Source of the DNA: an uncultured Clostridia bacterium
GTDB lineage: Bacteria; Bacillota; Clostridia; Christensenellales; Borkfalkiaceae
Direction: 5' to 3'
DNA length: 64,000 bases
NCBI GenBank assembly: GCA_947629515.1
Contig: CANRDY010000001.1
Coordinates: 24,948 to 88,947, forward strand
Translations under genes and position numbers: made by a program
Part shown: one piece after another, positions 1,161 to 63,521 of the stretch
How the letters are laid out: the number at the start of each line of letters is the position of its first letter
Numbering within the stretch: position 1 is the first letter of the stretch
The notes under the pieces: model-generated
Told to the model about the DNA's origin: nothing
What the model saw: the letters and a program-made list of their open reading frames with translations, nothing else
Databases searched by the model: none

Positions 1161-1467
1161 TGATGATTATTGGGAAGTGCACCCCCTCAGTCCGCTTCGC
1201 GGACAGCTCCCCCTCACAAGTGAAGGGGCGCGAATATTTTTTCCTTATTCCCTCCCCCTTGGTAAGGGGGAGGAATTGAAGGTGGGGGTTGCTTGTACGA
1301 AGTGAGAAAAGTTCGGTTGCCCTTGCAATTACGAAGTGAGAAAGTCCGAAGAAGCAAGTTATGCAAGGAAAGCGAGGAAAACCCGAAGGAGTTTACTATA
1401 AGGTAAATGACTGAGGGTTGCCGCAGCTTGACACAGCAGAACGCCGCTTATTCGGACTTTTCGGTAG
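1161..1467 (+). repeat. composite repeat: C-tip, E, E, F; right end abuts gerC-type stop codon
   Basis: GATTATTGGGAAGTGC (C tip). CCCCCTCAGTCCGCTTCGCGGACAGCTCCCCCTCACAAGTGAAGGGG (E). TCCCTCCCCCTTGGTAAGGGGGAGGA (E). F unit 1292-1467 is near-identical to 7855-8008, 21475-21600 and 28108-28230. Confidence 0.9.
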
Positions 1468-6050: not shown

Positions 6051-6060
6051 ACACAACAAC

Positions 6061-6155
6061 TTTTTTGCGTGAGCAAAAAAATTTCACTTGCGCGTAGCGC
6101 AAATTTCACTCGCACGCAGTGCGAATTTCACTTTTGCCGCAAGGCAAAATTACCT
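6061..6155 (-). repeat. A array (inverted orientation): 4 hairpins separated by GTGAAAT; begins 2 nt after the stop of gene 6156-6833
   Basis: Plus strand reads TTTTTTGCgtgaGCAAAAAA ATTTCAC TTGCGCgtaGCGCAA ATTTCAC TCGCACgcaGTGCGA ATTTCAC TTTTGCCgcaaGGCAAAA. Confidence 0.9.
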
Positions 6156-6833
6156 CTACTCCCTTTGCAAGAACGCTTTACAAAAAAGCTCTTCGTTTAC
6201 CTCGCCCGCAAGCACGCTCTGCACGGCTTTTACGCCCAGCTCCACCGCCTCTTCCAATACGCCCGCAAACAGCGAAAAGTCGTATTCGCACCTGTATGTC
6301 TGCCGCTTTGTGCGGTAAAGATAGCGCGTGTAGTCGAAGTGCCGCTTTAAGCACCTCTCCACGCCCGTCAGCGTGACGGTGGGAACGACCTGCTTTATGC
6401 TGTCGTACACCGCCCCCGTACATGCAAGCACCATGTCGCGCGGAAGGATCGTTCTGCGGGTCCTGTAAAATTTGCTTGCGTAAAGCCCCACGTCGCTCTC
6501 GAATTTCTGATGGGCGAAGAGCATGCGCTTACCCTCTTCAAAGGCATATACTATGGGGTGAATCGTGCTGTCGAGCGCGTAGTGCGTTGCCCAGCCCGCA
6601 AGGTAGCACTTGTTGCCCGAGAGCAGTTTTTTGAAGAGTTCGTCGGCTTTTTGCGCGTGCAGCTCCCGCCCCAAATTGGCGCGCGAGAGCTTCATGTTAT
6701 AGGCAAAGAACACGTCGCCCCCCTGCGCGCCGAGAATGTACAGCGCGCGCGAGGTTATCAGCTTTCTCGAATTACCGCCGATCTGCTCGTAAATGCGGTC
6801 GGCGGCTATTGTGTGGGTGAAATAATCGGGCAT
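6156..6833 (-). CDS. zinc-dependent phospholipase C-like family protein
   Basis: 225 aa. MPDYFTHTIAADRIY... N-terminus and GAQGGDVFFAYN block resemble the Firmicute Zn_dep_PLPC-domain hypothetical proteins. Assigned from memory of the family only. Confidence 0.5.
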   Translation of the reverse strand: MPDYFTHTIAADRIYEQIGGNSRKLITSRALYILGAQGGDVFFAYNMKLSRANLGRELHAQKADELFKKLLSGNKCYLAGWATHYALDSTIHPIVYAFEEGKRMLFAHQKFESDVGLYASKFYRTRRTILPRDMVLACTGAVYDSIKQVVPTVTLTGVERCLKRHFDYTRYLYRTKRQTYRCEYDFSLFAGVLEEAVELGVKAVQSVLAGEVNEELFCKAFLQRE

Positions 6834-7762: not shown

Positions 7763-8010
7763 CGAATATTATTTGGAATACACCCCCTCAGTCCGCGTTC
7801 GCGGACAGCTCCCCCTCACAAGTGAAGGGGCGCGAATGGGGAGTTTAGTGTGCTCGGTTGCCCTTGCCCGTACGAAGTGAGAAAGTTCGAAGAAGCAAGT
7901 TATGCAAGGAAAGCGAGGAAAACCCGAAGGAGTTTACATTGTAGTAAATGACTGAGGGTTGCCGCAGCTTGACACAGCAGAACGCCGCTTATTCGGGCTT
8001 TTCGGGAGTT
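7763..8010 (+). repeat. composite repeat: C-tip, E, F
   Basis: CGAATATTATTTGGAATACACCCCCTCAGTCCGCGTTCGCGGACAGCTCCCCCTCACAAGTGAAGGGG, then the F unit, near-identical to 1292-1467. Confidence 0.9.
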
Positions 8011-8034
8011 AATGGCAAAATTGAAATTTTGCCA

Positions 8035-15004: not shown

Positions 15005-15156
15005 GCGGGGGCGCGTTTGCGCCCCCGCGGCAAGCGTTCCGCTTGAGCGGCGTGTCGCAAGCGTTTCGCTTGATCAAGTGTCTTAACAGCGTGAAAGTAA
15101 AACAGCGGAAAGGCTGTTCAACGGGAAGCGGCGGGCGGCATTTTGCCGCCCCCGCG
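15005..15156 (+). repeat. repeat modules I, B (with internal duplication), I
   Basis: GCGGGGGCGC/GCGCCCCCGC hairpin. CAAGCGTTCCGCTTGAGCGGCGTGTCGCAAGCGTTTCGCTTGATCAAGTGTCTTAACAGCG...GGCTGTTCAAC. GCGGCGGGCGGCATTTTGCCGCCCCCGC. Confidence 0.85.
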
Positions 15157-15264
15157 GTGAAATTTTTTTGCTTGCGCAAAAAAGTGAAATTCGCACTGCG
15201 TGCGAGTGAAATTTGCGGCGTTCCGCCGCAAGTGAAATTTTTTACCTACGGTAAAAAGTTATGG
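15157..15264 (+). repeat. A array: 4 x (GTGAAAT + perfect hairpin), closed by GTTATGG
   Basis: GTGAAAT TTTTTTGCttgcGCAAAAAA GTGAAAT TCGCACtgcGTGCGA GTGAAAT TTGCGGCGttcCGCCGCAA GTGAAAT TTTTTACCtacGGTAAAAA GTTATGG. Confidence 0.9.
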
Positions 15265-15862
15265 TAAACGTTTCTTTTAATCAAGTATCTTAACGGCGGA
15301 GAAATAAGCGAGCGTTTAGGCTGTTCAACTTGAACAACCCCCACCTTTAATTCCTCCCCCTTGTAATTTCTACGTCCTCATTCCCTCCCCTTTTTCAAGG
15401 GAGAGGGTAGGGTAGGGGTAGCGTGAGCACGCGGGGAGCAAAGAACAAACGGCTTTTGGTTCGCGTTTCAAAGTGCAAGCACAGACCACGGGGGGATTCT
15501 CTCACTCAATCCCGCGCCTACGGCGCGTGTCATATCCCTCGAAATGACAGTGCCTTATGTTGCTCCGATATTATTTAAAATTGCTCCCCCCTCTTAAATT
15601 CTCCCCCCTCGCAAGCGAAGGGGGAGGGTTGGGTATGGGGAAGTGCGCGAAGGAGCGCGAATATTTTTTCCTTATTCCCTCCCCCTTGGTAAGGGGGAGG
15701 AATTGAAGGTGGGGGTTGCAATTACGAAGTAAAAAAGTCCGAAGAAGCAAGCAAGACAAGGCGAACGAGCGACGACCGCAGCGAGTGTACAATGAAGTAC
15801 ACGAACAAGGCGGAGCGACGTTCAACACAGTATTGCGTAGCTTATTCGGGCTTTGCGGGAGC
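15265..15862 (+). repeat. composite repeat: degenerate B, E, C (15460-15580), E, E, F; right end abuts desulfurase stop codon
   Basis: Module sequences match copies at 56868-56955, 30611-30805, 1236-1291 and 63222-63375. Confidence 0.9.
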
Positions 15863-19023: not shown

Positions 19024-19335
19024 GGCGGGCGCGCGATTTTAATCGCGCGCCCGCGCGTTTATGCGCGGGTCTCATAGCGTTCGAAATGACAGTGCCTTAA
19101 TGTGCTTCGATATTATTTAGAAATGCTCCCCCTCAGTCCGCAAAGCGGACAGCTCCCCCTCGCGGCTTGCCGCGAGGGGGAGCGAATTAGGTTAGCTGTT
19201 AATGCGCAAAGGAGAGCGAATGGGGTCGGTTGTTAACGCTCGAGAGAAGCGGATAGTTAAGGGCTATTTTCGCGAAAAGAGCGAATAGTTAAAAGTTATT
19301 TTTGCAAAGAACGAACAGTTTAAATTTTTCCCTCT
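19024..19335 (+). repeat. repeat modules I, C 3' half, E variant, then ~5 degenerate 27-30-nt tandem units
   Basis: GGCGGGCGCGCGATTTTAATCGCGCGCCCGC. CGCGGGTCTCATAGCGTTCGAAATGACAGTGCCTTAATGTGCTTCGATATTATTT. CCCCCTCAGTCCGCAAAGCGGACAGCTCCCCCTCGCGGCTTGCCGCGAGGGGGAG. Then GAGCGAATTAGGTTAGCTGTTAAT-like units at 19178-19330. Confidence 0.8.
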
Positions 19336-20807: not shown

Positions 20808-20892
20808 ATTTCCTCCAAACTTTCGAGGCGTTCGCCGTTTTACAAGGTATAATATGCGGCAAGAGCGGGGTTTATTACTATTTGGCGAAAGG

Positions 20893-21036
20893 CAAAAAAG
20901 TTGCGCCGTACCGCCGCAAGGGAAGGGGAGCGAATGGGGCAGGGTATGCGCGCGGGCGACTTTGCAAGAACGAAGTGCCTTATGTCGCTCCGATATTATT
21001 GGAAAGCGCGCGGGCGTTGAAACGCCCGCGCGCATA
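20893..21036 (+). repeat. fragments of modules A, E, C-tip and I in the divergent spacer upstream of veg
   Basis: AAAAGTTGCGCCGTACCGCCGCAAG; GGAAGGGGAGCGAATGGGG; AGTGCCTTATGTCGCTCCGATATTATTGGAAAG; hairpin GCGCGCGGGCGTTGAAACGCCCGCGCGC. Confidence 0.75.
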
Positions 21037-21066
21037 TTTTTGATAAAAACAGGCAACAATAATTGT

Positions 21067-21312
21067 ATGATAAAGGTAAATCTGACTATAAATACCATAA
21101 AGCAAAGGATAGCCTCGCTTATGGGCGCAAACGTGATCGTTAAACTCAACCTCGGCAGAAATAAGTTCGTGACTTTTCCCGCCACGCTCAACGGGATATA
21201 TCCGTCGCTGTTCACCGTAAGCCCCGACGACAAAAACTTTTTGGGAAAGACCGCGTATTCGTACTCCGAAATTTTATGCGGCAGAGTTAAAATTCAAAAA
21301 GCCGAAGCGTAA
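21067..21312 (+). CDS. veg: Veg protein (DUF1021)
   Basis: Internal ATG of track ORF 20854-21312. MIKVNLTINTIKQRIASLMGANVIVKLNLGRNKFVTFPATLNGIYPSLFTV...YSYSEIL aligns along its length with B. subtilis Veg. Confidence 0.85.
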   Translation: MIKVNLTINTIKQRIASLMGANVIVKLNLGRNKFVTFPATLNGIYPSLFTVSPDDKNFLGKTAYSYSEILCGRVKIQKAEA

Positions 21313-21327
21313 ACGCTTCGGCTTTTT
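21301..21327 (+). terminator. intrinsic terminator of veg
   Basis: GCCGAAGCG taaa CGCTTCGGC followed by TTTTT; the stop codon lies in the loop. Confidence 0.85.
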
Positions 21328-21352
21328 CAGTGGAATGGTTTGGGGGGGGTAA

Positions 21353-21632
21353 AAGTGCCATAAGGTGCTCCGATAGCATTTAAAAATACTCCCCCCTCTT
21401 CAATTCTCCCCCCTCGCAAGCGAAGGGGGAGGGTTGGGTATGGGGAGTGCGCGAAAGGGGTAGTTAAATGCGCTCGGTTGCCCTTGCCAGAACGAAGTTA
21501 GAAAGTTCGAAGAAGCAAGTTATGCAAGGAAAGCGAGGAAAACCCGAAGGAGTTTACTATAAGGTAAATGACTGAGGGTTGCCGCAGCTTGACACAGCAG
21601 AACGACGCATATACGAAGTTTAACGGGAGCTA
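21353..21632 (+). repeat. composite repeat: C-tip, E, F, G; last nt shared with stop codon of 21630-22142
   Basis: AGTGCCATAAGGTGCTCCGATAGCATTTAAAAA; CTCCCCCCTCGCAAGCGAAGGGGGAGGG; F unit; GCATATACGAAGTTTAACGGGAGC-TA. Confidence 0.9.
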
Positions 21633-22142
21633 AAAGTCCTCGTCGTCATCGTCATCATCCTCGTCATCATCCTCGTCATCGTCGTCAAGATCGTCATCGT
21701 CGCCGAGGTCGTCGAGAGGATCGACTTCGTCGAAGAACTCGTCGTCGTTTTCGTCGGTCTTGTCGTCGTCGCCGTCGAACTCTTCGGCAAGCTCCTCTTC
21801 AAGCTCCTCGCCGTCGACGGTAAGGTCGCTCTCGTCCTCGTCGAGGTAGTTCTTCCACTCCTCGTCCTTTTCGATATCGACGTCCTCTTCTTCCTCGTAC
21901 TCCTGTTGAAGCCGACAGTTCTCGCACATCTTTTCGCCGTAGCGTATGGGGTTGACGCCGCACACGGGGCAGACTTCGCTCTGTTCAAGCTCTTCGTCAA
22001 GCTCCTCGTACTCTTCCTCGTCGAGGTCGGCAAATTGCAGGCGGTTGCCTTCAAGCTCTGCCTTGCACACGTCGCAGTACTGCTGTTTTTCGCTGTCGAT
22101 ATAGTTAAGTTCGCATCTCGGACACTTGATATACTTTATCAT
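21630..22142 (-). CDS. zinc-ribbon protein with long poly-acidic C-terminal half
   Basis: 170 aa. CPRC...CDVC and CPVC...CENC pairs. C-terminal ~90 aa are almost entirely D/E. Confidence 0.6.
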   Translation of the reverse strand: MIKYIKCPRCELNYIDSEKQQYCDVCKAELEGNRLQFADLDEEEYEELDEELEQSEVCPVCGVNPIRYGEKMCENCRLQQEYEEEEDVDIEKDEEWKNYLDEDESDLTVDGEELEEELAEEFDGDDDKTDENDDEFFDEVDPLDDLGDDDDLDDDDEDDDEDDDDDDEDF

Positions 22143-25385: not shown

Positions 25386-26050
25386 GCGTTCCGCTTGAGC
25401 GGCGTGTCGCCGCGGACGGGCGTCTTAACGACGGGGAAGTAAGACGGCGGAAAGGCTGTTCAACGGGAAGCGGCGGGGCGCGTTTGCGCCCCGCCGCATT
25501 TTTAAATAATAACTGTCACCCTGAGCAAGCGAAGCGCGTCGAACGGGTCTATTCCGCAGTATAGCGGAGCTTTTTATAAGGTGAATATTATTTGGAAGTG
25601 TTAACGCGTTTCAAAGTGCAAGCACAGACCACCTTGGGATTATCTCACTCAATCCCGCGCCTACGGCGCGTGTCATGTCGTTCGAAATGACAGTGCCATA
25701 ATGCGCTCCGATATTATTTGGAAGTCCTACCCCCACCCTGCCCTCCCCCTCCAAATGGAAGGGGAGGAATGGGCGATTGTTAGGTTGCTGTACGAAGTGA
25801 GAAACTTTGGAGGCGAGCGGGGATTTCTCAAAACAGCGGACACCCGCTGTTTTGCCCCGCGAGGTGAGCTTGCGCATAGTGCAAGGCGCAAGCGGTGACC
25901 GAGAACGGCGTTTTTCCTTGCGCCGTTCGAGAAGCGAGCAGAACGAGGAGCGCGAGCAGTTTGCGAGGGAGCTTACAATGACGTAAGTGACCGAGCAAAA
26001 GCGGAGCGCGACAATGTTATGCGAAGCATATACGAAGTTTAACGGTAGCC
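25386..26050 (+). repeat. composite repeat: B, I, D (25505-25570), C (25604-25724), E variant, F with nested H (25813-25933), G
   Basis: Each module matches the copies listed in the summary key. Ends 4 nt before the stop of 26055-27365. Confidence 0.9.
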
Positions 26051-26054
26051 GAAA

Positions 26055-27365
26055 TTAACACAACGAATTAACGCGCCTGTAATCATCCCTCAACAAGCTG
26101 ACGTTAGTGGCAAGCTGACTGCTGCTTTCGCTTTGGTGCTTCATAAACTCGTTTGCAATATTCTGCCTGCTCGATATCCGCGCAAGATAAGCCGTATGCA
26201 CTCCCTGCGTTATCTGTATATTTGTTACTTTGGTATCTATGCGGTCGACCTTGCTGTCTAATCGGTCTACCTTGGCTTCAACACTGCCTATATAACCGCA
26301 GATCTTAGCCGACTCTTCGGCGACCATTTCGGAAATTCTATCGAAATTCTGCTGTAAGCTGTGCTGTATTCTGTCGGCGTTGTCTTTGATGGTTTCGCAA
26401 ATTCTGCGCGTTGCCTCTTGCATGGTATCGACTATCCTCTGCGTTTGCTCCTCGCGGTCGGCAAGTTGCAACGACTCTTTCATGCTTTCGGCGCGCCCCG
26501 TCTCGAATGTGTAGATCATGTAGTCCACGTATTTCCAATCGCGCGGGTTCAAAAAATCTCCGTAAAGTTTTTCGAGTGCGGAATAAAAAACCATTGCATT
26601 GGAAATTATCGCATTGGCTTTCCTCTTCTCTTCGTCAAGTTCGCTATCTGCCTTCTGCACTTCCTTGTTGTAACTTTCCTCGGCACTGTTGAAAGAATAT
26701 CTTGCGTTTTCAGCCGATCGCTCCGCACGGCGACGTTGCTTGCTATATCGTCCCGCACTAAATAAGTAACCAAAAGAGCGACGAAAATTATGCCACGCGC
26801 TGCCTACATTATCTGAGATTTGTTTGTCGTCTATAAACCATTTATACATTAGATAACCTAAAACCGCCGTAAGTCCTCCGCATACAAGCGGCGCGAGAAA
26901 GAAAATAGCGTACATCCAACCCTCAGGTATAGACGCAAGAAAATACCCGTACCAACCGTATGCTACTTCCATCCAGCCGGAATCCAAATGAAATAAATAA
27001 TTAATTAAACTTCCTAAAACGATTGTCAAAAAATACAAAGTAGCTCCGGCAAACGCAAGCAGTAACGCTATCAAAAATAATGAAAGTAAAGTCCATGCCA
27101 ATGCTTTAATAAAGTCAAGCGGCAATCTGTTTCGTGAGTTTTTAGCAGAATTTTCTCTTTCCTCTTTTTCGTCAAAATATTCTTCCGCATCGTTCAATTT
27201 TGATTGTGCAACCTGCAAACGCTCTTCCGCCGCACGAAGTTTTGCTTCGTGCTCAGACTGCGCGCGCGCCGTTATGTCGTCGCTCTTCTGCTTTTCGCTC
27301 GCCAAAACGCACATGCCCGCCCTTACCGCATATAGCTTGGTAACAACTTCGTTTACGCTTTCCAT
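26055..27365 (-). CDS. hypothetical membrane protein with N- and C-terminal coiled-coil regions
   Basis: 436 aa. AAGGAG SD. Central block of ~4 hydrophobic helices. Visibly AT-richer than neighbouring genes. No family recognised. Confidence 0.6.
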   Translation of the reverse strand: MESVNEVVTKLYAVRAGMCVLASEKQKSDDITARAQSEHEAKLRAAEERLQVAQSKLNDAEEYFDEKEERENSAKNSRNRLPLDFIKALAWTLLSLFLIALLLAFAGATLYFLTIVLGSLINYLFHLDSGWMEVAYGWYGYFLASIPEGWMYAIFFLAPLVCGGLTAVLGYLMYKWFIDDKQISDNVGSAWHNFRRSFGYLFSAGRYSKQRRRAERSAENARYSFNSAEESYNKEVQKADSELDEEKRKANAIISNAMVFYSALEKLYGDFLNPRDWKYVDYMIYTFETGRAESMKESLQLADREEQTQRIVDTMQEATRRICETIKDNADRIQHSLQQNFDRISEMVAEESAKICGYIGSVEAKVDRLDSKVDRIDTKVTNIQITQGVHTAYLARISSRQNIANEFMKHQSESSSQLATNVSLLRDDYRRVNSLC

Positions 27366-27667: not shown

Positions 27668-28345
27668 ATGCGGCGGGCACTTTTCAAAGTGCCCGCCGCA
27701 AGCGTTCCGCTTAACTATGTGTCTTAACGACGTGAAAGTAAAACAGCGGAAAGGCTGTTCAACACGAGGGCTGACCCCCTCCCTTGTATTCCCTCCCCCT
27801 GTTCTTTCTTCTATTCCCTCCCCTTCCGTTTCGGAGGGGGAGGGCGAGGGTAGGGGTGGCGGGAGTGCATAAGGGGCAATGAACGTACAATTTTTCGGTT
27901 CGCGTTTCAAAGTGCAAGCACGGACCACGGGGGGATTCTCTCACTTAATCGCCCGCGCATTTATGCGCGGGTCTCATAGCGTTCGAAATGACAGTGCCTT
28001 ATGTTGCTCCGATATTATTTGAAAGTGCACCCCCTCAGTCCGCGTTCGCGGACAGCTCCCCCTCTCGGCAAGCCGTGAAGGGGAGCGAATGGCGCGGGCG
28101 GAAGTATGGTTGCCCTTGCAATTACGAAGTGAGAAAGCCCGCAAGAAGCAAGTTATGCAAGGAAAGCGAGGAAAACCCGAAGGAGCTTACAATGACGTAA
28201 GTAACTGAGGGTTGCCGCAGCTTGACACAGCTTTATGTTGAACAGCTCAAACGCTCGGCTACCCCAACGCTGTTAAGACACTTGGTCAAGCGGAACGCTT
28301 GCGACGCATATACGAAGTTTGCGGCAGTTATACGAAGTTTACGGG
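27668..28345 (+). repeat. composite repeat: I, B, E (long), C (27900-28026), E, F, inverted B, G x2; overlaps the last codons of 28339-28983
   Basis: GCGGCGGGCACTT/AAGTGCCCGCCGC; CAAGCGTTCCGCTTAAC...GGCTGTTCAAC; CCCTCCCCTTCCGTTTCGGAGGGGGAGGG; remaining modules as in the key. Confidence 0.9.
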
Positions 28346-28983
28346 AGTTTCAAAGCTATCATCAGAACGATCGGCGCACGGGCATACTCCTCCTCCGCAA
28401 GCCGCCGCTCTTCACAGTCGGAATAGTCGCGCTCGATCGAGGGATAGTGCAACCTTATCTCCGTCTCTTCCGAAATGTCCTTTTCTCTGTCGACTTCGGT
28501 CACCGTGTAAAGTTTCTTCTCGCCGCCGCACGTCAAAAGCAAGCCGTCGCCCTCGCCGATATACCTCAACTGCGGCAAGTCGTCAAGCTCTATTTCGCCT
28601 TTTCGCGCACGCTCGAAAACCTTTTTTGTCACTTCGAGTTCGAACTGCTCGCGCACGTCTTCGGGAACAAACCCGAATCTGTCGAACCGCTCTGCGGGGT
28701 ATACGGGATCGCGCACGTCGAATGCGTACTTGGCATAGTCCATTCTGCCGAAAAGCCCGTGCGCTTCAGCCATGATTTCCCCCCAACACCTCTGCGAACA
28801 GCGAAAAGCCTTGCCGTCGTTGAGGACGGGCGCGCACAGCAAACTCTCCTGATGCGCCCAGCCCGAAAACATATAACCGTGCGCTTTTATGTCGTCTATA
28901 ATGGCGTTCCGCGCCGCCCAGAATGTGTTTACCTCGCCGATATCGTCGTCGTATTCCGTCCAGCCCACTACTCTGTATTTCAT
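28339..28983 (-). CDS. hypothetical protein
   Basis: 214 aa. GGTGGAG SD. The last four sense codons plus stop (LKLP*) lie inside repeat module G. No family recognised. Confidence 0.55.
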   Translation of the reverse strand: MKYRVVGWTEYDDDIGEVNTFWAARNAIIDDIKAHGYMFSGWAHQESLLCAPVLNDGKAFRCSQRCWGEIMAEAHGLFGRMDYAKYAFDVRDPVYPAERFDRFGFVPEDVREQFELEVTKKVFERARKGEIELDDLPQLRYIGEGDGLLLTCGGEKKLYTVTEVDREKDISEETEIRLHYPSIERDYSDCEERRLAEEEYARAPIVLMIALKLP

Positions 28984-30520: not shown

Positions 30521-31061
30521 ACATTGAAATTTTTTTGCGAGAATTGTGAAATTTTTGCGCGGGTGCGGGGGAAAGGGACGGGACGCTTACTCAATAGCTT
30601 ATTTTTTGATACCGTTTCAAAGTGCAAGCACGGACCACCTTGGGATTCTCTCGGTCAATCCCGCGCCTACGGCGCGTGTCATATCCCTCGAAATGACAGT
30701 GCCATAATAAGCTCCGATAATATTTGAAATGCTCCCCCCTCTTTAATTCTCCCCCCTCGCAAGCGAAGGGGGGAGGGTTGGGTATGGGGAAGTGCGCGAA
30801 GGGGGAGTTTAGGGCGTTCGGTCGTCCTTGCAATTACGAAGTGAGAAACTTTGTAGATGCGAGCAGAACGAGGAGCGCGAGCAGTTTGCGAGGAAGCGTA
30901 CACAGAAGTACGTAACCGAGCAAAAGCGGAGCGCGACACAGCTTTATGTTGAACAGCCTATCCGCCGTATTACCTCAACGCTGTTAAGACACTTGGTCAA
31001 GCGGAACGCTTGCGAAGCATATACGAAGTTTTCGGGAGTATACGAAGTTTAACGGGAGCTA
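30521..31061 (+). repeat. composite repeat: A fragment, C (30611-30729), E, F, inverted B, G x2; last nt shared with stop of 31059-32033
   Basis: Modules as in the key. Terminal sequence GCATATACGAAGTTTTCGGGAGTATACGAAGTTTAACGGGAGC-TA. Confidence 0.9.
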
Positions 31062-32033
31062 ACGGTTCACAATGTCGAACTCATCACACACCACCAGCTT
31101 AAACCTCGAAAGGGCGTCGCTTTCGAGCGCGCAACGGTGCATGTCGACCCCTCTGACAGTGCGGTCGCCGTAGGTCGTGTAGTAATAAATGCCGCGGTCG
31201 GCGTTACAACAGGACGAATAAATCGTCGTCTCGTTGCCGCCTTTCAGCCGAACACAGCCGCGCGGCTGTTCGACCGAGCAAAGTATGTGGAAAAATTGGT
31301 TCACGCTGTCGACCTCGCTGCCGTCGGAAAGCGAGTTGCTTTTGACGAACGCCGCCTTGATGAACCGCGAACGCGAGGACATATCCCCCGGCAAGCCCGC
31401 CCCTCCCAGCCCTCTGCTGTATGCCGCGATCGGAACTTCGGGCGCGAACGTGTTTTCGGGTTCGTACGGGGTCAGGCGCAGGTAATCGGCAAGGCTGAGT
31501 TCCATATCGGGGAACGGCGGGTTGTTGGTCAGCACGCCTATACGGTTCTCATAAATTTTAAGACCGTCCGCCGTCGGTTCAACGGTAATCGCGCGGGCGG
31601 CGTCGGCAATTATCCAATGCAGGGGCGTGGGCGGCAGTTCTGCGCTGAACGGGATATCCGCAAGATTTATGCGGGCAAGTTCGCTCTCCGCCTCGCTCAC
31701 GCTTGCGCATTTGCCGAGGATATAGGGTATGAACTCGTAGGGGGCGACGTTGACCGCGCCGTCGCGGACGGGGGCGTAGAACGCATTGCCGGGGAAGTTC
31801 AGACCCGCCATTGCAAGACCCTTTTCGTTGACCGCGTCGTAATAGAGCGGATAGCCGCCGCTTACATACGCCATTCCTATCATGGCGTGAAGTTGGCGGG
31901 GGGCTTCGGCACGGCTGAACTTTATGGGAAAATTGCGCGGGGTGACGCAGACCTCGACGTCGTAGGTGAACTCGAAGTCGAGATTTCTGCCGAAGTAAAA
32001 ATCGCGGGTTTTATAGGTGATGGCTGTGCACAT
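31059..32033 (-). CDS. choloylglycine hydrolase family protein (Ntn linear amide C-N hydrolase; bile-salt-hydrolase-like)
   Basis: Trimmed to MCTAITYKTRDFYFGRNLDFEF (Cys2 nucleophile after Met). 324 aa. Confidence 0.8.
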   Translation of the reverse strand: MCTAITYKTRDFYFGRNLDFEFTYDVEVCVTPRNFPIKFSRAEAPRQLHAMIGMAYVSGGYPLYYDAVNEKGLAMAGLNFPGNAFYAPVRDGAVNVAPYEFIPYILGKCASVSEAESELARINLADIPFSAELPPTPLHWIIADAARAITVEPTADGLKIYENRIGVLTNNPPFPDMELSLADYLRLTPYEPENTFAPEVPIAAYSRGLGGAGLPGDMSSRSRFIKAAFVKSNSLSDGSEVDSVNQFFHILCSVEQPRGCVRLKGGNETTIYSSCCNADRGIYYYTTYGDRTVRGVDMHRCALESDALSRFKLVVCDEFDIVNR

Positions 32034-32364: not shown

Positions 32365-32446
32365 ACAAAGGGGAACCCAAAGCGGTTGACCTCGACAAGT
32401 TTAAAAAATAACCGTCAAGCTATCAACTATCGGCGGTTATTTTTTT
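32365..32446 (+). ncRNA. predicted ~80-nt non-coding RNA, 3' end antisense to small ORF 1
   Basis: Runs from the predicted TSS (~7 nt after the -10) to the bidirectional terminator. No ATG in the transcript. Paralogous to 35668-35757. Confidence 0.4.
32403..32446. terminator. bidirectional intrinsic terminator shared by small RNA 1 and small ORF 1
   Basis: AAAAAATAACCG ... CGGTTATTTTTTT: A-run/T-run-flanked stem usable on both strands. Confidence 0.65.
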
Positions 32447-32544
32447 ACGCGCTTAATCGCTATGTACTCGACTTCGTCGAGCAACAGCTCAAGCTGTTTA
32501 AGGAGCTCGCAGAGTTGCGATACTAATTCGCTAAACTCGGTCAT
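32437..32544 (-). CDS. small ORF 1, 35 aa (MTEFSELVSQLCELLKQLELLLDEVEYIAIKRVKK)
   Basis: AAAGGAGGTG SD 8 nt upstream of ATG 32544. Stop codon lies inside the terminator stem. Paralogue at 35748-35852. The track lists a longer 97-aa frame that reads through repeat H. Confidence 0.45.
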   Translation of the reverse strand: MTEFSELVSQLCELLKQLELLLDEVEYIAIKRVKK

Positions 32545-32599
32545 AAGCCTCACCTCCTTTGAAAGAAAATGTTTTACTCCATTTTCCCCCTCGAGAGGT

Positions 32600-32704
32600 C
32601 TTCTCGCGCGGCGTAAGGAGCAACGCCGCGCTCGGTCACCGCTTGCGCATTGCACTATGCGCAAGCTCATCTTACACAAGAAAACAGCGGGTGTCCGCTG
32701 TTTT
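32600..32704 (-). repeat. module H (inverted relative to other copies), between promoter and SD of small ORF 1
   Basis: Matches 25833-25933 and 36335-36433 in reverse complement. Contains AAAACAGCGGacacCCGCTGTTTT. Confidence 0.85.
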
Positions 32705-32766
32705 AAGAATTTTGTGTTCGACGCCTGCAAGGATTCCCCCTTGCTTCGAAAATTAATATTAAAATT

Positions 32767-32795
32767 AGTATAAACTTTTTGTAATATTTTGTCAA
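32767..32795 (-). promoter_or_regulatory. consensus sigma-A promoter of small ORF 1
   Basis: Minus strand TTGACA - 17 nt - TATACT. Confidence 0.6.
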
Positions 32796-35966: not shown

Positions 35967-36631
35967 GCGCGCGGGCGTTTGAGAACGCCTGCGCGCGTAT
36001 ATTATGTTGTATTACATTATTATTTAAATATGAGTTCGCGTTTCAAAGTGCAAGCACGAACCACGGGGTCGAGTGCGGCGGTGTTCCTTACGCCGCGCGA
36101 GAAATTCTCTCGCTCAATCCCGCGCCTACGGCGCGCGTCATATCCCTCGAAATGACAGTGCCTTAATGCGCTCCGATAATATTTGAAAATGCTCCCCCCT
36201 CTTTAATTCTCCCCCCTCGCAAGCGAAGGGGGAGGGTTGGGTATGGGTAGGGCGCGAATGGGGAGTTTAGTGCGCTTGATTACCATTGCAATTACGAAGT
36301 GAGAAAGTTCGAAGGCGAGCGGGGATTTCTCAAAACAGCGGACACCCGCTGTTTTGCCCCGCGAGGTGAGCTTGCGCATAGTGCAAGGCGCAAGCGGTGA
36401 CCGAGCGCGGCGTTGCTCCTTACGCCGCGCGAGAAGCAAGCAAGACAAGGCGAACGAGCGACGACCGCAGGGAGTGTACAATGAAGTAAATGACTGAGCA
36501 AAAACGTAAGCGCGACACTGCTTTATGTTGAACAGCCTATCCGCCGTATTACTTCCCCGCTGTTAAGACACTTGGTCAAGCGGAACGCTTGCGACGCATA
36601 TACGAAGTTTACGGGCTTTGCGGTAGCTTAT
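35967..36631 (+). repeat. composite repeat: I, C (36036-36190, carrying a partial H hairpin at 36070-36103), E, F with nested H (36315-36433), inverted B, G; ends 4 nt before alaS stop
   Basis: Modules as in the key. Confidence 0.9.
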
Positions 36632-44939: not shown

Positions 44940-45216
44940 TTCGAGGGCTTTGCCCGACCCCTCGCCAAAGGCGAGACCGAAGCAAGCAAACTTCTAATAA
45001 TAACTGTCACCCTGAGCAAGCGAAGCGCGTCGAACGGGTCTATTCCGCAGCATAACGGGGTTTTTGTAAGGTGAATATTATTTGGAAGTGATAGCGCGTT
45101 TCAAAGTGCCCCGAGCAGACCACGGGGGGATTCTCTCACTCAATCCCGCGCCTTTGGCGCGTGTCATATCGTTCGAAATGACAGTGCCTTAATGTGCTCC
45201 GATATTATTTGGAAGT
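44940..45216 (+). repeat. composite repeat: D-like, D (44996-45060), C (45094-45216); C tip supplies the stop codon of 45205-45966
   Basis: AACTGTCACCCTGAGCAAGCGAAGCGCGTCGAACGGGTC; CGTTTCAAAGTGCCCCGAGCAGACCAC...CCGATATTATTTGGAAGT. Confidence 0.9.
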
Positions 45217-45966
45217 TTCTTCGGGTTCTTCGGAAGATAAAGTTTCGGGGGCGGGGGTCGAAAGCGATTGGGAGTAGTTTTCGAGGTGCTCCTTTAAGGT
45301 GAACTCCGACTTGAACGGAGCGAAAAAGCTCGCACGCTTTGCGCCCGATTGCTCTATCTTTTCCTTTGCCTTTTCTTTGAGCTTTTCGAACGATACAACT
45401 ATGCTGTGCTCTTTGGCAAAACTGCGGATCTTTGCGGTGAGGTTCAGAGAGTGCGCGAGGTCGACTATGAAGAACCCCGAGAACAGCCCGATTATGTAGG
45501 CAAATTCTATGTTTTCGACGAACCATATTACCGCGTCTATGGCGTACGGGCGTATTACAAAGTAGAAAAACGCGCCGACGAGCGTCCACAAAAATGAGAA
45601 CAGCGGGCAGATTATTCCCTGTATGTTGCCCCAACGGTTGGTGTAGTCCCACAGCTTTATCTTCATTCCCTTTATAAAGATAAGCCCCGCTATGTACTCG
45701 ATGAGCGTCATGAACGCGCCCATGATCAAAATTATCAGAATGGCGTCGACCCACGGATAGCCCGTGTATATTGGAATGAACGAGACGGCAAACAGCCCCA
45801 CTATCCCGAAGCCGTATAACGGCAGATAGGGTCCCGTCAAAAAGCCGGGGTTTATCCACTTTTTGGCGGTGAAAAATCTGCGGAAGAGCACTTCCGTCAC
45901 CCAGCCCAGCATACTGCCCGTTATAAACAGAAAACACGCTACCAAAAACGCCGTATATACCTGCAT
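45205..45966 (-). CDS. polytopic membrane protein (resembles DUF1113 / putative ABC-transporter type IV family)
   Basis: Trimmed to MQVYTAFLVACFLFITGSMLGWVTEVLFRR. 253 aa with 6-7 TM helices. Family assignment is from memory only. Confidence 0.55.
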   Translation of the reverse strand: MQVYTAFLVACFLFITGSMLGWVTEVLFRRFFTAKKWINPGFLTGPYLPLYGFGIVGLFAVSFIPIYTGYPWVDAILIILIMGAFMTLIEYIAGLIFIKGMKIKLWDYTNRWGNIQGIICPLFSFLWTLVGAFFYFVIRPYAIDAVIWFVENIEFAYIIGLFSGFFIVDLAHSLNLTAKIRSFAKEHSIVVSFEKLKEKAKEKIEQSGAKRASFFAPFKSEFTLKEHLENYSQSLSTPAPETLSSEEPEETSK

Positions 45967-46029
45967 ATCTCTTCTCCCGTGCGTCGCTTTATACTGTGCG
46001 CGGCGATCGTCGCGCAAATTATCAAACCG

Positions 46030-50045: not shown

Positions 50046-50630
50046 TGATTGCGCAAAAAAGTGAAATGAAAAAGTATGCGGCGGGCACTTTGAAAAGTGC
50101 CCGCCGCTATTTCCGATAATAACTGTCACCCTGAGCAAGCGAAGCTCGTCGAACGGGTCTATTCCGCAGTATAGCGGAGTTATTATAATAAGGCGGTTAT
50201 TATTTAAAATAGGGTACGCGTTTCAAAGAGCAAGCACGGACCACAGGGGGATTCTCTCACTCAATCGAACCCGCTATCGCGGGATTCTTATGTCGTTCGA
50301 AATGACAGTGCCATAATGTGCTCCGATATTATTTAGAAGTGCTTGAACGAAGTAAATTGCAATTACGAAGTGAGAAACTTCGGAGATGCGAGTTATGCAA
50401 GGAGCGCGCGGATTTTGCGATAGGAGCTTACAATGAAGTAAGTGTCGTACCGAAGGCGTTAGCCTTACCGAGCAAAAACGCAAGCGCGACACCGTTTTAT
50501 GTTGAACAGCCTATCCGCCGTATTACCTCAACGACGTTAAGACACTTGGTCAAGCGGAACGCTTGCGAAGCATATACGAAGTTTAACGGGAGCAAAGCGC
50601 GCGGGCGCGGCAAACGCCGCGCCCGCGCGC
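50046..50630 (+). repeat. most complete composite repeat: A fragment, I, D (50115-50180), C (50216-50340), F, inverted B, G (ends 50593), I hairpin (50597-50630)
   Basis: Modules as in the key. Fills almost the whole degV / LMW-PTP spacer. Confidence 0.9.
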
Positions 50631-51900: not shown

Positions 51901-51949
51901 GTCCACCAACGCCCCGCGACGCTTTATGCGTCGCGGGGCGTTGGTGGAC
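51901..51949 (-). terminator. 22-bp perfect hairpin following and including the tmRNA 3' end
   Basis: Minus strand GTCCACCAACGCCCCGCGACGC ataa GCGTCGCGGGGCGTTGGTGGAC. Confidence 0.7.
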
Positions 51950-52324
51950 GAGTCGGGACTTGCACCCGAGTCTTGACGGTGTCGTCGGAGCTTTCTACAT
52001 ACTTATTCCGCCTTTGGCTTGACCGCGCTTCCCGACGGACGGGGCGGGCGCGGGGCAGACCGCAAAAAATTTTGCACGGGCGCGCGCGGTCGGACGCGCG
52101 CTGTGCTATCCGTTAAGATGACGCTCTGCGCCGTCAACGGAATACGGCGCAAAACGGACCGCTTTAAGTTAAGCGGCGAGCGCGCAGCTTGCAGCTCTGT
52201 ACGAGGGGAAAGCTACGACTTTTTCGCTTTTATCTGCGTTTGAATTTAGTTTCCGTTTTTACAAAGCCGAGCCTTTGGTATGCTTTTCTCCTTCTCTTCC
52301 GCCAATCGAATCTGAAACTCGCCC
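51942..52324 (-). ncRNA. ssrA: tmRNA (ssrA), ~383 nt
   Basis: Minus strand 5' GGGCGAGUUUCAGAUUCGAUUGG... and 3' ...UCGGGUGCAAGUCCCGACUCGUCCACCA. The 7-bp acceptor stem GGGCGAG/CUCGUCC has a G3.U70 pair, followed by discriminator A and encoded CCA. Internal tag frame GCA GAU ... GCG CUC GCC GCU UAA (52237-52169) ends ...ALAA-stop. Confidence 0.8.
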
Positions 52325-55477: not shown

Positions 55478-56686
55478 ATGAAATATGTAGTTGTGCTCGG
55501 CGACGGAATGGCAGATTGGAAAATGGACAGCCTCGGCGGCAAGACCTGCCTTGAAAAGGCAAAAACGCCCGTTCTGGACGGCATTGCGCCCCGCTCGGAA
55601 GTGGGGCTGTGCAAGACCGTGCCCGCGGGAATGAAGCCGGGGAGCGACGTGGCGAATATGTCGGTGATGGGCTTTAACCCCGCCGATTTTTACACGGGGC
55701 GTTCCCCCCTCGAAGCCGTTTCGATGGGAATAGATTTGAAGCCCACCGACGTGACGTTGAGGTGCAACCTCGTCACCCTTTCGGACGGCGGGGCTTACGA
55801 GGATAAGACCATGCTCGACTATTCGGCGGGCGAGATATCCACCGAAGAGGCGCGGGAACTTATAAACTTTTTGAAGGATCATCTGGACGGCGGGGGGTTT
55901 ACTTTTTACCCCGGCATTTCGTACCGCCACTGCCTTGTTGCCGACTGCGGAAAGACGGGGCACACCCTTACCCCGCCCCACGATATTTCGGACAGAAAGA
56001 TAACGGAGTACCTTCCCAAGGGCGAAAATGCGCATATATATTTAGATTTTATGAAAAAGAGCTACGAATTGCTCAAAGACCACCCCGTAAATTTAAGGCG
56101 GAAAGCCGAGGGCAAAAACCCCGCCAACAGCATTTGGCTGTGGGGCGAGGGCACGAAACCCGCGCTCGAAAACTTTGAAAAACTGCGCGGGTTAAAGGGC
56201 GGAGTTATTTCCGCAGTCGACCTTGTTAAGGGCATCGGCATGCTTGCGGGAATGAAGATAATCGAGGTCGAAGGATCGACGGGAGAATATCACACCAACT
56301 TCCTCGGCAAGGCGAACGCCGCCGCCGACGCGCTCATCGGCGGGTTGGATTACGTATATATCCACATGGAAGCCCCCGACGAGTGCGGTCACCACGGCGA
56401 CCCCGAGCACAAGATCTATTCTATCGAGCAAATCGATTCGAAGGTCGTAAAGACCCTTTTGGAGAGGCTGAAAGGGGAAAGGTTTGCAATGCTCGTCTGC
56501 CCCGACCACCCCACTCCCTGCGCCTGCAAAACGCACGTCTCCGACCCTATACCCTACCTTATTTACACAAACACAAAAGACCTCGGCAACGGCGCGCCGC
56601 GCTACACCGAGGACGAGGCGGCAAAGACGGGCGAGTACGTCGCCGACGGCTACAAGCTCATCGAAAAGCTGTTGGGGATAAAGTGA
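55478..56686 (+). CDS. apgM: cofactor-independent phosphoglycerate mutase, archaeal-type (ApgM family)
   Basis: MKYVVVLGDGMADW start, HMEAPDECGHHGD, metalloenzyme-superfamily blocks. 402 aa. Confidence 0.8.
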   Translation: MKYVVVLGDGMADWKMDSLGGKTCLEKAKTPVLDGIAPRSEVGLCKTVPAGMKPGSDVANMSVMGFNPADFYTGRSPLEAVSMGIDLKPTDVTLRCNLVTLSDGGAYEDKTMLDYSAGEISTEEARELINFLKDHLDGGGFTFYPGISYRHCLVADCGKTGHTLTPPHDISDRKITEYLPKGENAHIYLDFMKKSYELLKDHPVNLRRKAEGKNPANSIWLWGEGTKPALENFEKLRGLKGGVISAVDLVKGIGMLAGMKIIEVEGSTGEYHTNFLGKANAAADALIGGLDYVYIHMEAPDECGHHGDPEHKIYSIEQIDSKVVKTLLERLKGERFAMLVCPDHPTPCACKTHVSDPIPYLIYTNTKDLGNGAPRYTEDEAAKTGEYVADGYKLIEKLLGIK

Positions 56687-56840
56687 GTTTTTGCTAACGC
56701 AAAAGTGAAATTTTTTTGCGTAAGCAAAAAAGTGAAATTTGCGGCGTGCCGCCGCAAGTGAAATTTGCACTTCGTGCAAGTGAAATTTTTGCCTTACGGC
56801 AAAAGTGAAATTTTTTGCGCTATCGCGCAAAAAGTTGTGG
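56683..56840 (+). repeat. A array, largest copy: 7 hairpins; first linker GTGAGTT contains the TGA stop of apgM; closed by GTTGTGG
   Basis: Stems TTTTGC, TTTTTTGC, TTGCGGCG, TTGCAC, TTTTGCC and TTTTTGCGC, each with a perfect complement. Loops taac/gtaa/tgc/ttc/ttac/tatc. GTGAAAT linkers at 56705, 56732, 56758, 56780 and 56805. Confidence 0.9.
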
Positions 56841-57200
56841 TAAAAATTATGCGGCGGGCGCCGCGGTAACCCCCCACCTTTCATTCCTCCCCCTTGTAAT
56901 TTCTCCGCCCAATATTCCCTCCCCTTTCTCAAGGGGGAGGGGAGGGTAGGGGTTTTTCTTATAATATCGGAGCATATTAAGGCACTGTCATTTCGAGGGA
57001 TATGACACGCGCCGTAGGCGCGGGATTGACCGAGATAATCCCAACGTGGTCTGTGCTTGCTCTTTGAAACCAACACCCACATTTCTGTAATAATTACTCC
57101 GCTATGCTGCGGAATAGACCCGTTCGACGCGCTTCGCTTGCTCAGGGTGACAGTTATTATTATAATGCGGCGGGCGACTTTTCAAAGTCGCCCGCCGCTT
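56841..57200. repeat. composite repeat with inverted modules: I, E, inverted C (56957-57072), inverted D (57097-57160), I hairpin
   Basis: E is in the usual orientation, but C and D are reverse-complemented relative to all other copies. GCGGCGGGCGACTT/AAGTCGCCCGCCGC hairpin at 57168-57199. Confidence 0.9.
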
Positions 57201-57228
57201 CATATTTTTATATACGCTTTATATCCTT

Positions 57229-63098: not shown

Positions 63099-63521
63099 AG
63101 GTGACCCCCTCCCTTGTGTTCCCTCCCCCTGTTCTTCCTTCCATTCCCTCCCCTTCCGCCTCGGAGGGGGAGGGCGAGGGTAGGGGTAGCGGGAGTGCGC
63201 GAATGGGGAGTTTAGGGTGCTCGGTCGTCCTTGCAATTACGAAGTGAGAAAGTTCGAAGAAGCAAGCAAGACAAGGCGAACGAGCGACGACCGAAGCGAG
63301 TGTACAATGAAGTACACGAACAAGGCGGAGCGACGTTCAACACAGTATTGCGTAGCTTATTCGAGCTTTGCGGAAGCTGTACGAAGTGAGAAACTTTGTA
63401 GATGCGAGTTATGCAAGGAGCGCGCGGATTTTGCGAAAGGAGCTTACAATGACGTAAGTGACTGAGCAAAAACGCAAACGCGACACCGCAGAACGAAGCA
63501 TATACGAAGTTTGCGGCAGTA
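63099..63521 (+). repeat. composite repeat: E (long), F, second F variant, G; right end abuts clpP stop codon
   Basis: CCCTCCCCTTCCGCCTCGGAGGGGGAGGG. F at 63222-63375 matches 15712-15862. F at 63376-63490 matches 50355-50480. GCATATACGAAGTTTGCGGCAGTA. Confidence 0.9.

Follow-up and report, generated by a model that had tools for sequence, protein, structure and literature searches.

Several families among the pneumococcal BOX, RUP and SPRITE repeats and other bacterial MITEs (miniature transposable elements bearing inverted repeats), such as Correia/NEMIS and ERIC, use TA as their target, and Escherichia coli REP elements near stop codons are reported to affect translation and mRNA stability, including as barriers to 3' exonucleases or as modulators of translation termination. 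To our knowledge, no BOX, RUP or MITE family meets stop codons with the precision described here, at eight of ten sites. The pneumococcal elements are small hairpins without an open reading frame (ORF) that form clusters by inserting into one another, and ERIC copies at the 3' ends of genes change transcript levels (PMC10969869). In this study we analyzed one 64-kb stretch of DNA (the window) on a contig from the metagenome-assembled genome of an uncultured gut Clostridia bacterium, in which composite repeats end in a hairpin unit, F, or in F with a further segment, G. The termini of F and G dock at the stop codons of neighboring genes; this docking is real and its precision is unusual.

Nearly all genes in the window lie on the minus strand. 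Self-comparison by blast delimited about 15 blocks of interspersed repeats, each 160-840 nt long and together making up about 11% of the window. The blocks are composites of shared modules that keep a common order from one composite to another; they are BIME- or BOX/RUP-like mosaics of nested small extragenic repeats, which is a known kind of structure. On the plus strand the right-hand ends of ten composites read ...GCATATACGAAGTTT(N1-2)CGGNAG or ...GCTTATTCGGRCTTTNCGGNAG, a description drawn from 11 aligned termini. We defined the terminus as the last G of CGGNAG on this strand and the gap as its distance to the first base of the stop codon. Family scans identified flanking minus-strand genes as gerC-like, spoIVFB (an M50 peptidase), cysteine desulfurase, bile-salt hydrolase, alaS, LMW-PTP and clpP. 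Genes for a 170-aa and a 214-aa protein are supported by orthologues or homologues, and a 436-aa ORF had no family match and no orthologue at its locus in related species. In gene order along the window the gaps measured 0, 26, 2, 0, 6, -9, 0, 4, 64 and 3 nt, at the following features.

1330 to 1467, plus strand: F copy c1 (subfamily a), one long hairpin of -51.8 to -55.5 kcal/mol on this strand, depending on the segment folded.
1468, minus strand: TAA stop of the gerC-like gene, gap 0 nt.
7871 to 8008, plus strand: F copy c7, adjoining the first TA downstream of the spoIVFB stop.
8035, minus strand: TGA stop of spoIVFB (Pfam Peptidase_M50), gap 26 nt, occupied by a small hairpin at 8011 to 8032.
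15723 to 15861, plus strand: F copy c15 (subfamily b).
15864, minus strand: TAA stop of the cysteine desulfurase gene, gap 2 nt.
21491 to 21629, plus strand: F copy c21.
21630, minus strand: TAG stop of the 170-aa gene, gap 0 nt, junction TAG followed by CTCCCG; its orthologues all end in DF-stop or LF-stop.
25791 to 26048, plus strand: F copy c25, containing an insertion of about 110 nt with three hairpins.
26055, minus strand: TAA stop of the 436-aa gene (26055 to 27365), gap 6 nt.
28123 to 28347, plus strand: F plus G of composite c27; the last unit is read for 9 nt by the 214-aa gene, giving Leu-Pro-stop.
28339 to 28983, minus strand: 214-aa gene, gap -9 nt, its coding sequence ending inside the terminal unit CTCCCGTAA.
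30601 to 31058, plus strand: composite c30 (from the self-blast block and module map), with its F plus G segment at 30835 to 31058.
31020 to 31058, plus strand: right end of c30, two tandem terminal units of 19-20 nt, TATACGAAGTTTTCGGGAG and TATACGAAGTTTAACGGGAG (from the sequence, pattern matches and terminus alignment).
31059 to 31061, minus strand: TAG stop of the bile-salt hydrolase gene, junction TAG followed by CTCCCGTTAAAC, that is, TAG followed by CTCCCG.
31059 to 32033, minus strand: bile-salt hydrolase gene (NCBIfam choloylglycine hydrolase, E = 8e-125), gap 0 nt.
36293 to 36627, plus strand: F plus G of composite c35.
36632, minus strand: TAA stop of alaS, gap 4 nt.
50364 to 50592, plus strand: F plus G of composite c50.
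50657, minus strand: stop of the LMW-PTP gene, gap 64 nt, occupied by a GC-rich hairpin.
63240 to 63379, plus strand: F copy c62a (subfamily b, 96% identical to c15), nested between two TA at the junction of an E module and c62b.
63380 to 63518, plus strand: F copy c62b.
63522, minus strand: TAA stop of clpP, gap 3 nt.

Eight of the ten F/G termini thus fall between -9 and +6 nt from the stop of the co-oriented upstream gene, and at the other two, spoIVFB and LMW-PTP, one hairpin fills each gap. Under uniform placement within each intergenic region the combined Fisher p was 2.2e-6, and with a 50-nt landing zone the probability of at least eight of ten termini lying within 6 nt of a stop was 5e-6. 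These placement nulls bear out the judgment of an earlier, sequence-only reading that random insertion between genes would not produce such precision. That reading had placed all ten right-hand ends at or very near a stop, which holds for the eight within -9 to +6 nt and fails for the two that stand away. It had also passed over composites lacking an F/G end, among which those at 6149 and 56688 dock, a D9 module overlaps the stop at 45205, and those at 19187 and 32847 do not dock. Its individual distances compare with ours as follows: the terminus inside the coding sequence at 28339 (-9 nt), a spacing of about 25 nt at spoIVFB (26 nt, with a small hairpin between) and separation by a hairpin only at LMW-PTP (64 nt of GC-rich hairpin) were all confirmed. 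A distance of 0 nt was upheld at the gerC-like gene and became 2 nt at the desulfurase and 3 nt at clpP; 4 nt was upheld at alaS and became 6 nt at 26055. The disagreement of 0-3 nt arose where 1-3 variable bases had been counted into the terminus.

The junction at 21630 (GACTTTTAG followed by CTCCCGTTAAAC...) was reproducible: 7 contigs, each from a different sample and built by one or other of two assemblers, show it without a mismatch. Sequence L045 is identical to the window. All 7 contigs that carry the 170-aa gene contain the composite and break inside the repeat. An assembly or ORF-calling artefact was considered and rejected, since independent assemblies reproduce the junction and the C-termini of orthologous proteins agree.

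We then compared five loci with their syntenic counterparts from three to four related species; in the nearest other species the PPi-dependent phosphofructokinase is about 91% identical, and syntenic genes share about 80% nucleotide identity, while a protein on record from a 132-kb NCBI/ENA contig matches the enzyme of the window at 100%. The C-terminus of ClpP (VFYKR-stop) is identical in the relatives and the window, that of the 170-aa protein (DF-stop) is the same, and the desulfurase ends within one residue of its relatives. AlaS is two residues shorter in the window, where its gene ends in TAA; in each of the three relatives the stop is TGA. The 214-aa protein has a short tail that varies among its homologues, and the repeat-derived Leu-Pro-stop is therefore a tolerated replacement. 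In the relatives these stops are followed by unique spacer, 5-35 nt long, and by an intrinsic terminator. The composite thus takes the position of this short native 3' region, and the stops of the window lie at, or within two codons of, their ancestral places. The comparison with orthologous loci that the sequence-only reading proposed thus yields ancestral stops, with a spacer and terminator in the relatives where the window has a composite.

Spacers that are free of repeats in the window (clpX-lon, rpsI) resemble those of the relatives, and unique spacers of 50-150 nt persist, so there has been no general intergenic compaction. In the sister species a degenerate F terminus directly follows the clpP stop (local score 32, against 19.5 +/- 3.2 for shuffled sequence); three control regions put through the same test were not significant. 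A scan for the terminus pattern that covered 185,579 species genomes and the JGI metagenomes yielded isolated chance matches, none with extended similarity, and exact-protein look-ups with the bile-salt hydrolase and AlaS found nothing on record. The 436-aa, 214-aa and bile-salt hydrolase genes (26055 to 27365, 28339 to 28983 and 31059 to 32033) are absent at these positions in three related species, and a composite directly follows each of them.

F is a discrete unit of 140 nt, 5'-CGAAGTG...CGGAAGCTG-3', with TA on both sides. Its ends are defined by copy c62a, a clean nested insertion of 140 nt: excising c62a in silico together with one TA restored a junction between E module and F like that of c30, with 69 of 72 spanning bases identical. 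All 12 F starts in the window are on the plus strand. The copies form four subfamilies, 87-97% identical within and 60-79% between, and each folds as one long imperfect hairpin in which 11-12 base pairs are kept by compensatory changes across the subfamilies. Folding energies on the plus strand are about -38 to -52 kcal/mol (z-scores -4 to -7); the minus strand, which is the gene-sense strand, folds 5-15 kcal/mol more weakly and with poorer z-scores in six of six simple copies. In the inner arms (AAAGTTCGAAGAAGC and GCTTATTCGGGCTTT) 12-13 of 15 positions pair, and the outer 8-10 nt (CGAAGTGA.. against ..CGGNAGY) are not complementary. F contains no ORF; small ORFs overlapping stops and starts as in MIRU, and a Shine-Dalgarno-ATG pair in the apical loop, were both inspected and rejected as not conserved between copies.

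The longer forms are built by insertion. The segment first called G consists of an inserted, inverted 70-nt hairpin module (D2) and terminal units, which occur as direct repeats at both ends of F. A three-hairpin module of about 110 nt is inserted in F between near-identical direct repeats of 9-11 nt. In a strain 97.6% identical to the window (L096) the first unit at the stop of the 214-aa gene is kept and a different terminal segment follows it, which shows that modules are exchanged between copies. The idea that younger copies stack next to the stop was rejected: at clpP the copy next to the stop is the old one, as it shares 79% identity with its closest paralogue and the sister species has the degenerate F terminus at that stop, and the copy farther off is young (96% identical to c15). 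The far ends of the composites carry GC-rich hairpins, several of them without a T-run on the gene strand, which are candidates for displaced native terminators.

The sequence next to F pointed to the dinucleotide TA. Among 13 termini and units examined, 11 are followed by a TA within 0-3 nt, and where a gene is docked this dinucleotide belongs to its stop codon. The base in front of it on the plus strand, T or C, closes F and at the same time complements the third stop base. This double use explains the nucleotide that the sequence-only reading had rightly seen as common to repeat and stop at 21630 and 31059, as well as the two TAG stops. At 31059, reading the end as GGGAGC makes the third stop base the last base of the repeat, and under the CGGNAG definition the stop is directly adjacent, with a gap of 0. 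The nested copy c62a, which is not at a stop, ends in G instead. Of the stops docked by F/G termini six are TAA and two TAG; the window has 12 genes ending in TGA and no such terminus docks at any of them (p = 0.054; Fisher two-sided, 0.08), a bias against TGA that is suggestive only. At the TGA of spoIVFB, F stands at the first TA downstream of the stop. The heads of F are preceded by TAA (four), TAG (two), ATA (two) and others, and no single tetranucleotide emerges.

These properties place F closest to a TA-flanked MITE or a REPIN-like hairpin, but it departs from every described family in defining features. Like BOX, RUP and SPRITE, Correia/NEMIS and ERIC, the repeats are small, ORF-less, hairpin-forming, multi-copy and intergenic, and they cluster; F departs from BOX/RUP and other MITEs in that all its copies have one orientation and lack inverted repeats at the tips, and in sequence it is not similar to them. 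A TA-duplicating MITE derived from IS630/Tc1-mariner would agree with F in size (below 300 bp), absence of an ORF, abundance (12 copies in 64 kb) and subfamilies, but F has neither terminal inverted repeats at its tips nor insertions in both orientations. The REP/BIME arrays of E. coli and the REPINs, mobilized by Y1 transposases of the RAYT type, are likewise ordered mosaics of palindromes of conserved structure at gene 3' ends and between cistrons. F differs in forming one 140-nt hairpin rather than a pair of 35-nt REPs, its modules do not alternate in orientation, and it has no conserved GTAG head (the terminal CGG[N]AG gives GTAG in only three copies). No RAYT gene was seen in the window. 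A single Y1 transposase gene turned up, in a related species, and it is of the ordinary IS200 type (L079, 1933 to 2403; 156 aa, of lower G+C and next to deoR); no link between it and the repeats was found, and it places the enzyme family in the clade.

The non-autonomous elements derived from IS200/IS605 (PATEs) share several traits with F: they keep one orientation with respect to most genes, and probably also with respect to replication, show no clear duplication of the target, depend on a hairpin, and adjoin a very short target that stays usable for further insertions. They differ in having separate subterminal hairpins and a defined tetra- or pentanucleotide target, where F has one stem-loop and no single such target emerges, and the better-folding strand of F is opposite to the gene-sense strand. 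Integron attC sites and MIRU also begin at or overlap the stop of the preceding gene and lie in one orientation. The attC cores (R''/L''-L'/R', RYYYAAC ... GTTRRRY) are nonetheless lacking in F: GTTAAAC in one unit variant fits GTTRRRY, and CGCAAAC, CGAAAAC and CGTAAAC do not. The window has no integrase, and housekeeping genes are involved. F also lacks the conserved small ORF that overlaps stops and starts in MIRU. Neither F nor G matched any Rfam family even at E <= 1, and in the window only Gut-1 arrays and tmRNA did.

The reading that we favor, and to which we assign slightly less than an even chance, is that F, alone or as F plus G, is a non-autonomous mobile hairpin that integrates at the TA of stop codons in a fixed orientation. 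F would be a small ORF-less mobile element within lineage-specific mosaics that fill the space downstream of genes. It would integrate at TA in one orientation, and at eight genes that TA would be part of the TAA or TAG that ends the upstream, co-oriented gene. With its final base, A or G when read on the gene strand, the element would rebuild the third position of the stop, so that the frame ends at its ancestral position. Copies would have arisen by transposition through a trans-acting enzyme encoded elsewhere, the TA of the stop being preferred through a further target determinant at the boundary between coding and non-coding DNA. This preference may be reinforced by selection that removes copies landing within the ORF or within the following gene's promoter, and the composite would be transcribed as the 3' untranslated region (UTR) of the gene. 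The subfamily structure and the single strand of the 12 F starts count in favor of a population of mobile elements.

The sequence-only reading had left three explanations open, and site-specific insertion at gene 3' ends is the one most directly supported, by the discreteness of F, the TA on both sides, the ancestral stops and the absence of docking at TGA. Insertion at terminators was seen only in relatives, where F follows the terminator of rpsI. As TA preference alone is insufficient, selection for a 3'-UTR function or for a plus-strand function may still be at work. Putative antisense transcription draws on a promoter-like pair of hexamers in another module and on the better fold of F on the plus strand.

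Several observations weigh against our favored reading. The orthologous intergenic regions of the relatives hold 4-24 TA sites each, and a uniform choice among them would hit the TA of the stop at all four loci with orthologous empty sites with p of about 4e-5; an extra target feature at the coding/non-coding boundary, or selection, must therefore act beyond TA preference. A 2-nt TA duplication is indistinguishable from a TA that belongs to the element. In two relatives a copy of F lies just after the rpsI terminator and not at the stop. Among the seven sampled strains there is no within-species empty site, all of them carrying the composite, and the 64-kb window has no transposase or recombinase. 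In a TA-duplicating MITE, outer tips that are not inverted repeats would be unusual, and so would the single orientation. Stops, one TGA among them, are abutted by further types of module as well, and docking is thus not specific to F. Finally, the sample is a single window.

The strongest competitor, which we nevertheless consider unlikely, is selection for a putative RNA function in the 3' UTR. A co-transcribed stem that begins 8-15 nt after the stop would be favored, perhaps because it blocks 3' exonucleases or modulates how translation terminates, and insertions elsewhere would be lost. This would account for an orientation that follows the upstream gene, including in an inverted composite behind a plus-strand gene, for the compensatory changes that keep the hairpin, for the abutment of different module types on stops and for the shortfall of TA preference. 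Read-through is also suggested between clpP and clpX, where the gene strand has no promoter- or terminator-like site. Against such a function, the gene-sense strand is the one that folds less well in all six simple copies; F also occurs at spoIVFB, behind a TAA that is not a stop, and as a copy nested within a further composite; in the relatives it lies after a terminator, outside the likely transcript; and a stabilizer does not require an exact spacing of 0 nt.

Two of the other modules have features of their own on one strand. The D5/D9 module (for example 30693 to 30721 and 36152 to 36180) is the best-conserved piece of the composites, with 10-12 copies; it contains ATGACA-17-GATAAT on the plus strand, pointing to the gene end, and its conservation extends past both hexamers. 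Copies of the D15 module (for example at 15399, 21425, 30768, 36228 and 63166) hold most of the G-quadruplex-type motifs, which in the window number 11 on the plus and 4 on the minus strand, so the gene-sense RNA of the composites has C-rich tracts. A putative role of these tracts in Rho loading or termination appears doubtful: the C-over-G skew on the gene strand is only 0.09, and clpP-clpX is apparently read through.

A function of the plus strand is a more doubtful possibility than one in the 3' UTR. A putative transcript would run from the D5 promoter-like site through F, or F would act as a one-way terminator or insulator against convergent antisense transcription. Conservation of ATGACA-17-GATAAT on the plus strand in about 10 copies speaks for it, as do the greater stability (5-15 kcal/mol) and better z-scores of that strand of F in the six simple copies, and the three-hairpin module of c25 and c35, which lies on the plus strand in the same sense as a copy in the 5' leader of a small ORF at 32600 to 32709. 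No U-tract follows the F stem on the plus strand, however, where only CUUUUC or UUU occurs within the stem; the conservation of D5 well beyond its two hexamers is not specifically promoter-like; and counts of wobble-compatible substitutions are ambiguous between strands. Comparably doubtful is a broader proposal, that the element or its enzyme responds to where translation ends and not to any DNA word, possibly by integrating into DNA that becomes accessible as the ribosome departs from the transcript at the stop, or else that the mosaics form a genome-wide, orientation-specific system for processing or insulating 3' ends, with hairpins starting at the stop.

Neutral compaction, in which F landed anywhere downstream of a gene and later deletions removed the intervening DNA, appears improbable. 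It could draw on the F copies behind the rpsI terminator of relatives, on the two undocked copies with just one hairpin in between and on one truncated composite fused into a gene end. The F terminus is nevertheless intact to within a few bases at eight loci, the genome retains composites of 300-840 nt as well as its unique spacers of 50-150 nt, repeat-free spacers are no shorter than those of the relatives, and eight independent deletions ending exactly at both boundaries would be improbable. Least probable of all is that the terminal unit is the site of a site-specific recombinase, with cassette-like gene capture as at integron attC: the three genes absent from relatives each precede a docked composite, each end of F carries a direct repeat of the unit, strains differ in what lies behind the first unit, and 11 contiguous unit bases match the 13-bp arm of loxP (AACTTCGTATA), but housekeeping genes at ancestral positions (clpP, alaS, desulfurase) are docked too, a second inverted arm at recombinase-site spacing is missing, the attC cores are matched only by chance in one variant, and the window encodes no integrase.

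The nested repeats take the place that native spacers and terminators hold behind housekeeping genes in the relatives. Should docking reflect a choice of target, F would be an unusually precise small element that uses the stop's own TA and rebuilds the stop, and it would offer a handle on how such elements find safe sites. If it reflects selection, it would point to a 3'-end function in gut Clostridia. Repeats of this kind also break metagenome assemblies exactly at stop codons.

The composites without an F/G end include arrays that match an orphan Rfam motif, Gut-1 RNA (RF01706). Three composite arrays match it, two above threshold (56.5 and 52.3 bits) and one just below (47.7 bits); they are listed here with two composites that lack an F/G end:

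56730 to 56816, plus strand: Gut-1 match.
15155 to 15243, plus strand: Gut-1 match.
6054 to 6133, minus strand: Gut-1 match.
56688 to 57204, minus strand: the only inverted composite, a Gut-1-type hairpin array starting 1-2 nt after the TGA of a plus-strand phosphoglycerate mutase gene (55478 to 56686).
45183 to 45216, plus strand: D9 module of a truncated composite, providing the last three codons and the TAA of a CmpB-like gene (45205 to 46017).

The arrays consist of tandem GTGAAAT and a hairpin of variable sequence, occur in either orientation and form a module distinct from F and G; the one at 6149 starts 6 nt after a TAG at 6156. The composites at 19187 and 32847 are undocked, at 153 and 28 nt from a stop. 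The 2010 description of Gut-1 reported it from human gut sequences only and took it for a probable non-coding RNA (PMC2864571). Its occurrence here suggests a repeat element rather than a stand-alone small RNA gene, and the motif can be re-read as one module of a repeat mosaic.

Further observations concern individual modules and loci. The three-hairpin module occurs in F at 25829 to 25930 and 36327 to 36436 on the plus strand, in c25 and c35. It is also found at 32437 to 32795 on the minus strand, between a promoter-like TTGACA-17-TATACT and an ORF of 36 codons that has a terminator and a strong ribosome-binding site. The module may be a leader or regulatory RNA that turned mobile, or the reverse. 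The veg gene region (20854 to 21312, plus strand) is inverted relative to three related species and flanked by repeat pieces at 20974 to 21040 and 21296 to 21633; composite c21 consequently lies between two convergent stops. In a contig of the same species (L044) the modules and genes past window position 28204 are different, which reflects either true variation or a join made at the repeat. A ClpX homologue of 679 aa on a 3.8-kb ENA contig (P0122; E = 3.6e-245) is 269 residues longer than normal and may be a gene call that runs upstream through a clpP-clpX composite in another assembly. Lastly, Rfam placed a full-length tmRNA at 51942 to 52324 on the minus strand (106.7 bits, E = 1e-40), and ARAGORN reported no tmRNA or tRNA in the window; at the corresponding position, between pfkB and a LOG-family gene, the relatives have a gene-free gap of about 790 nt.

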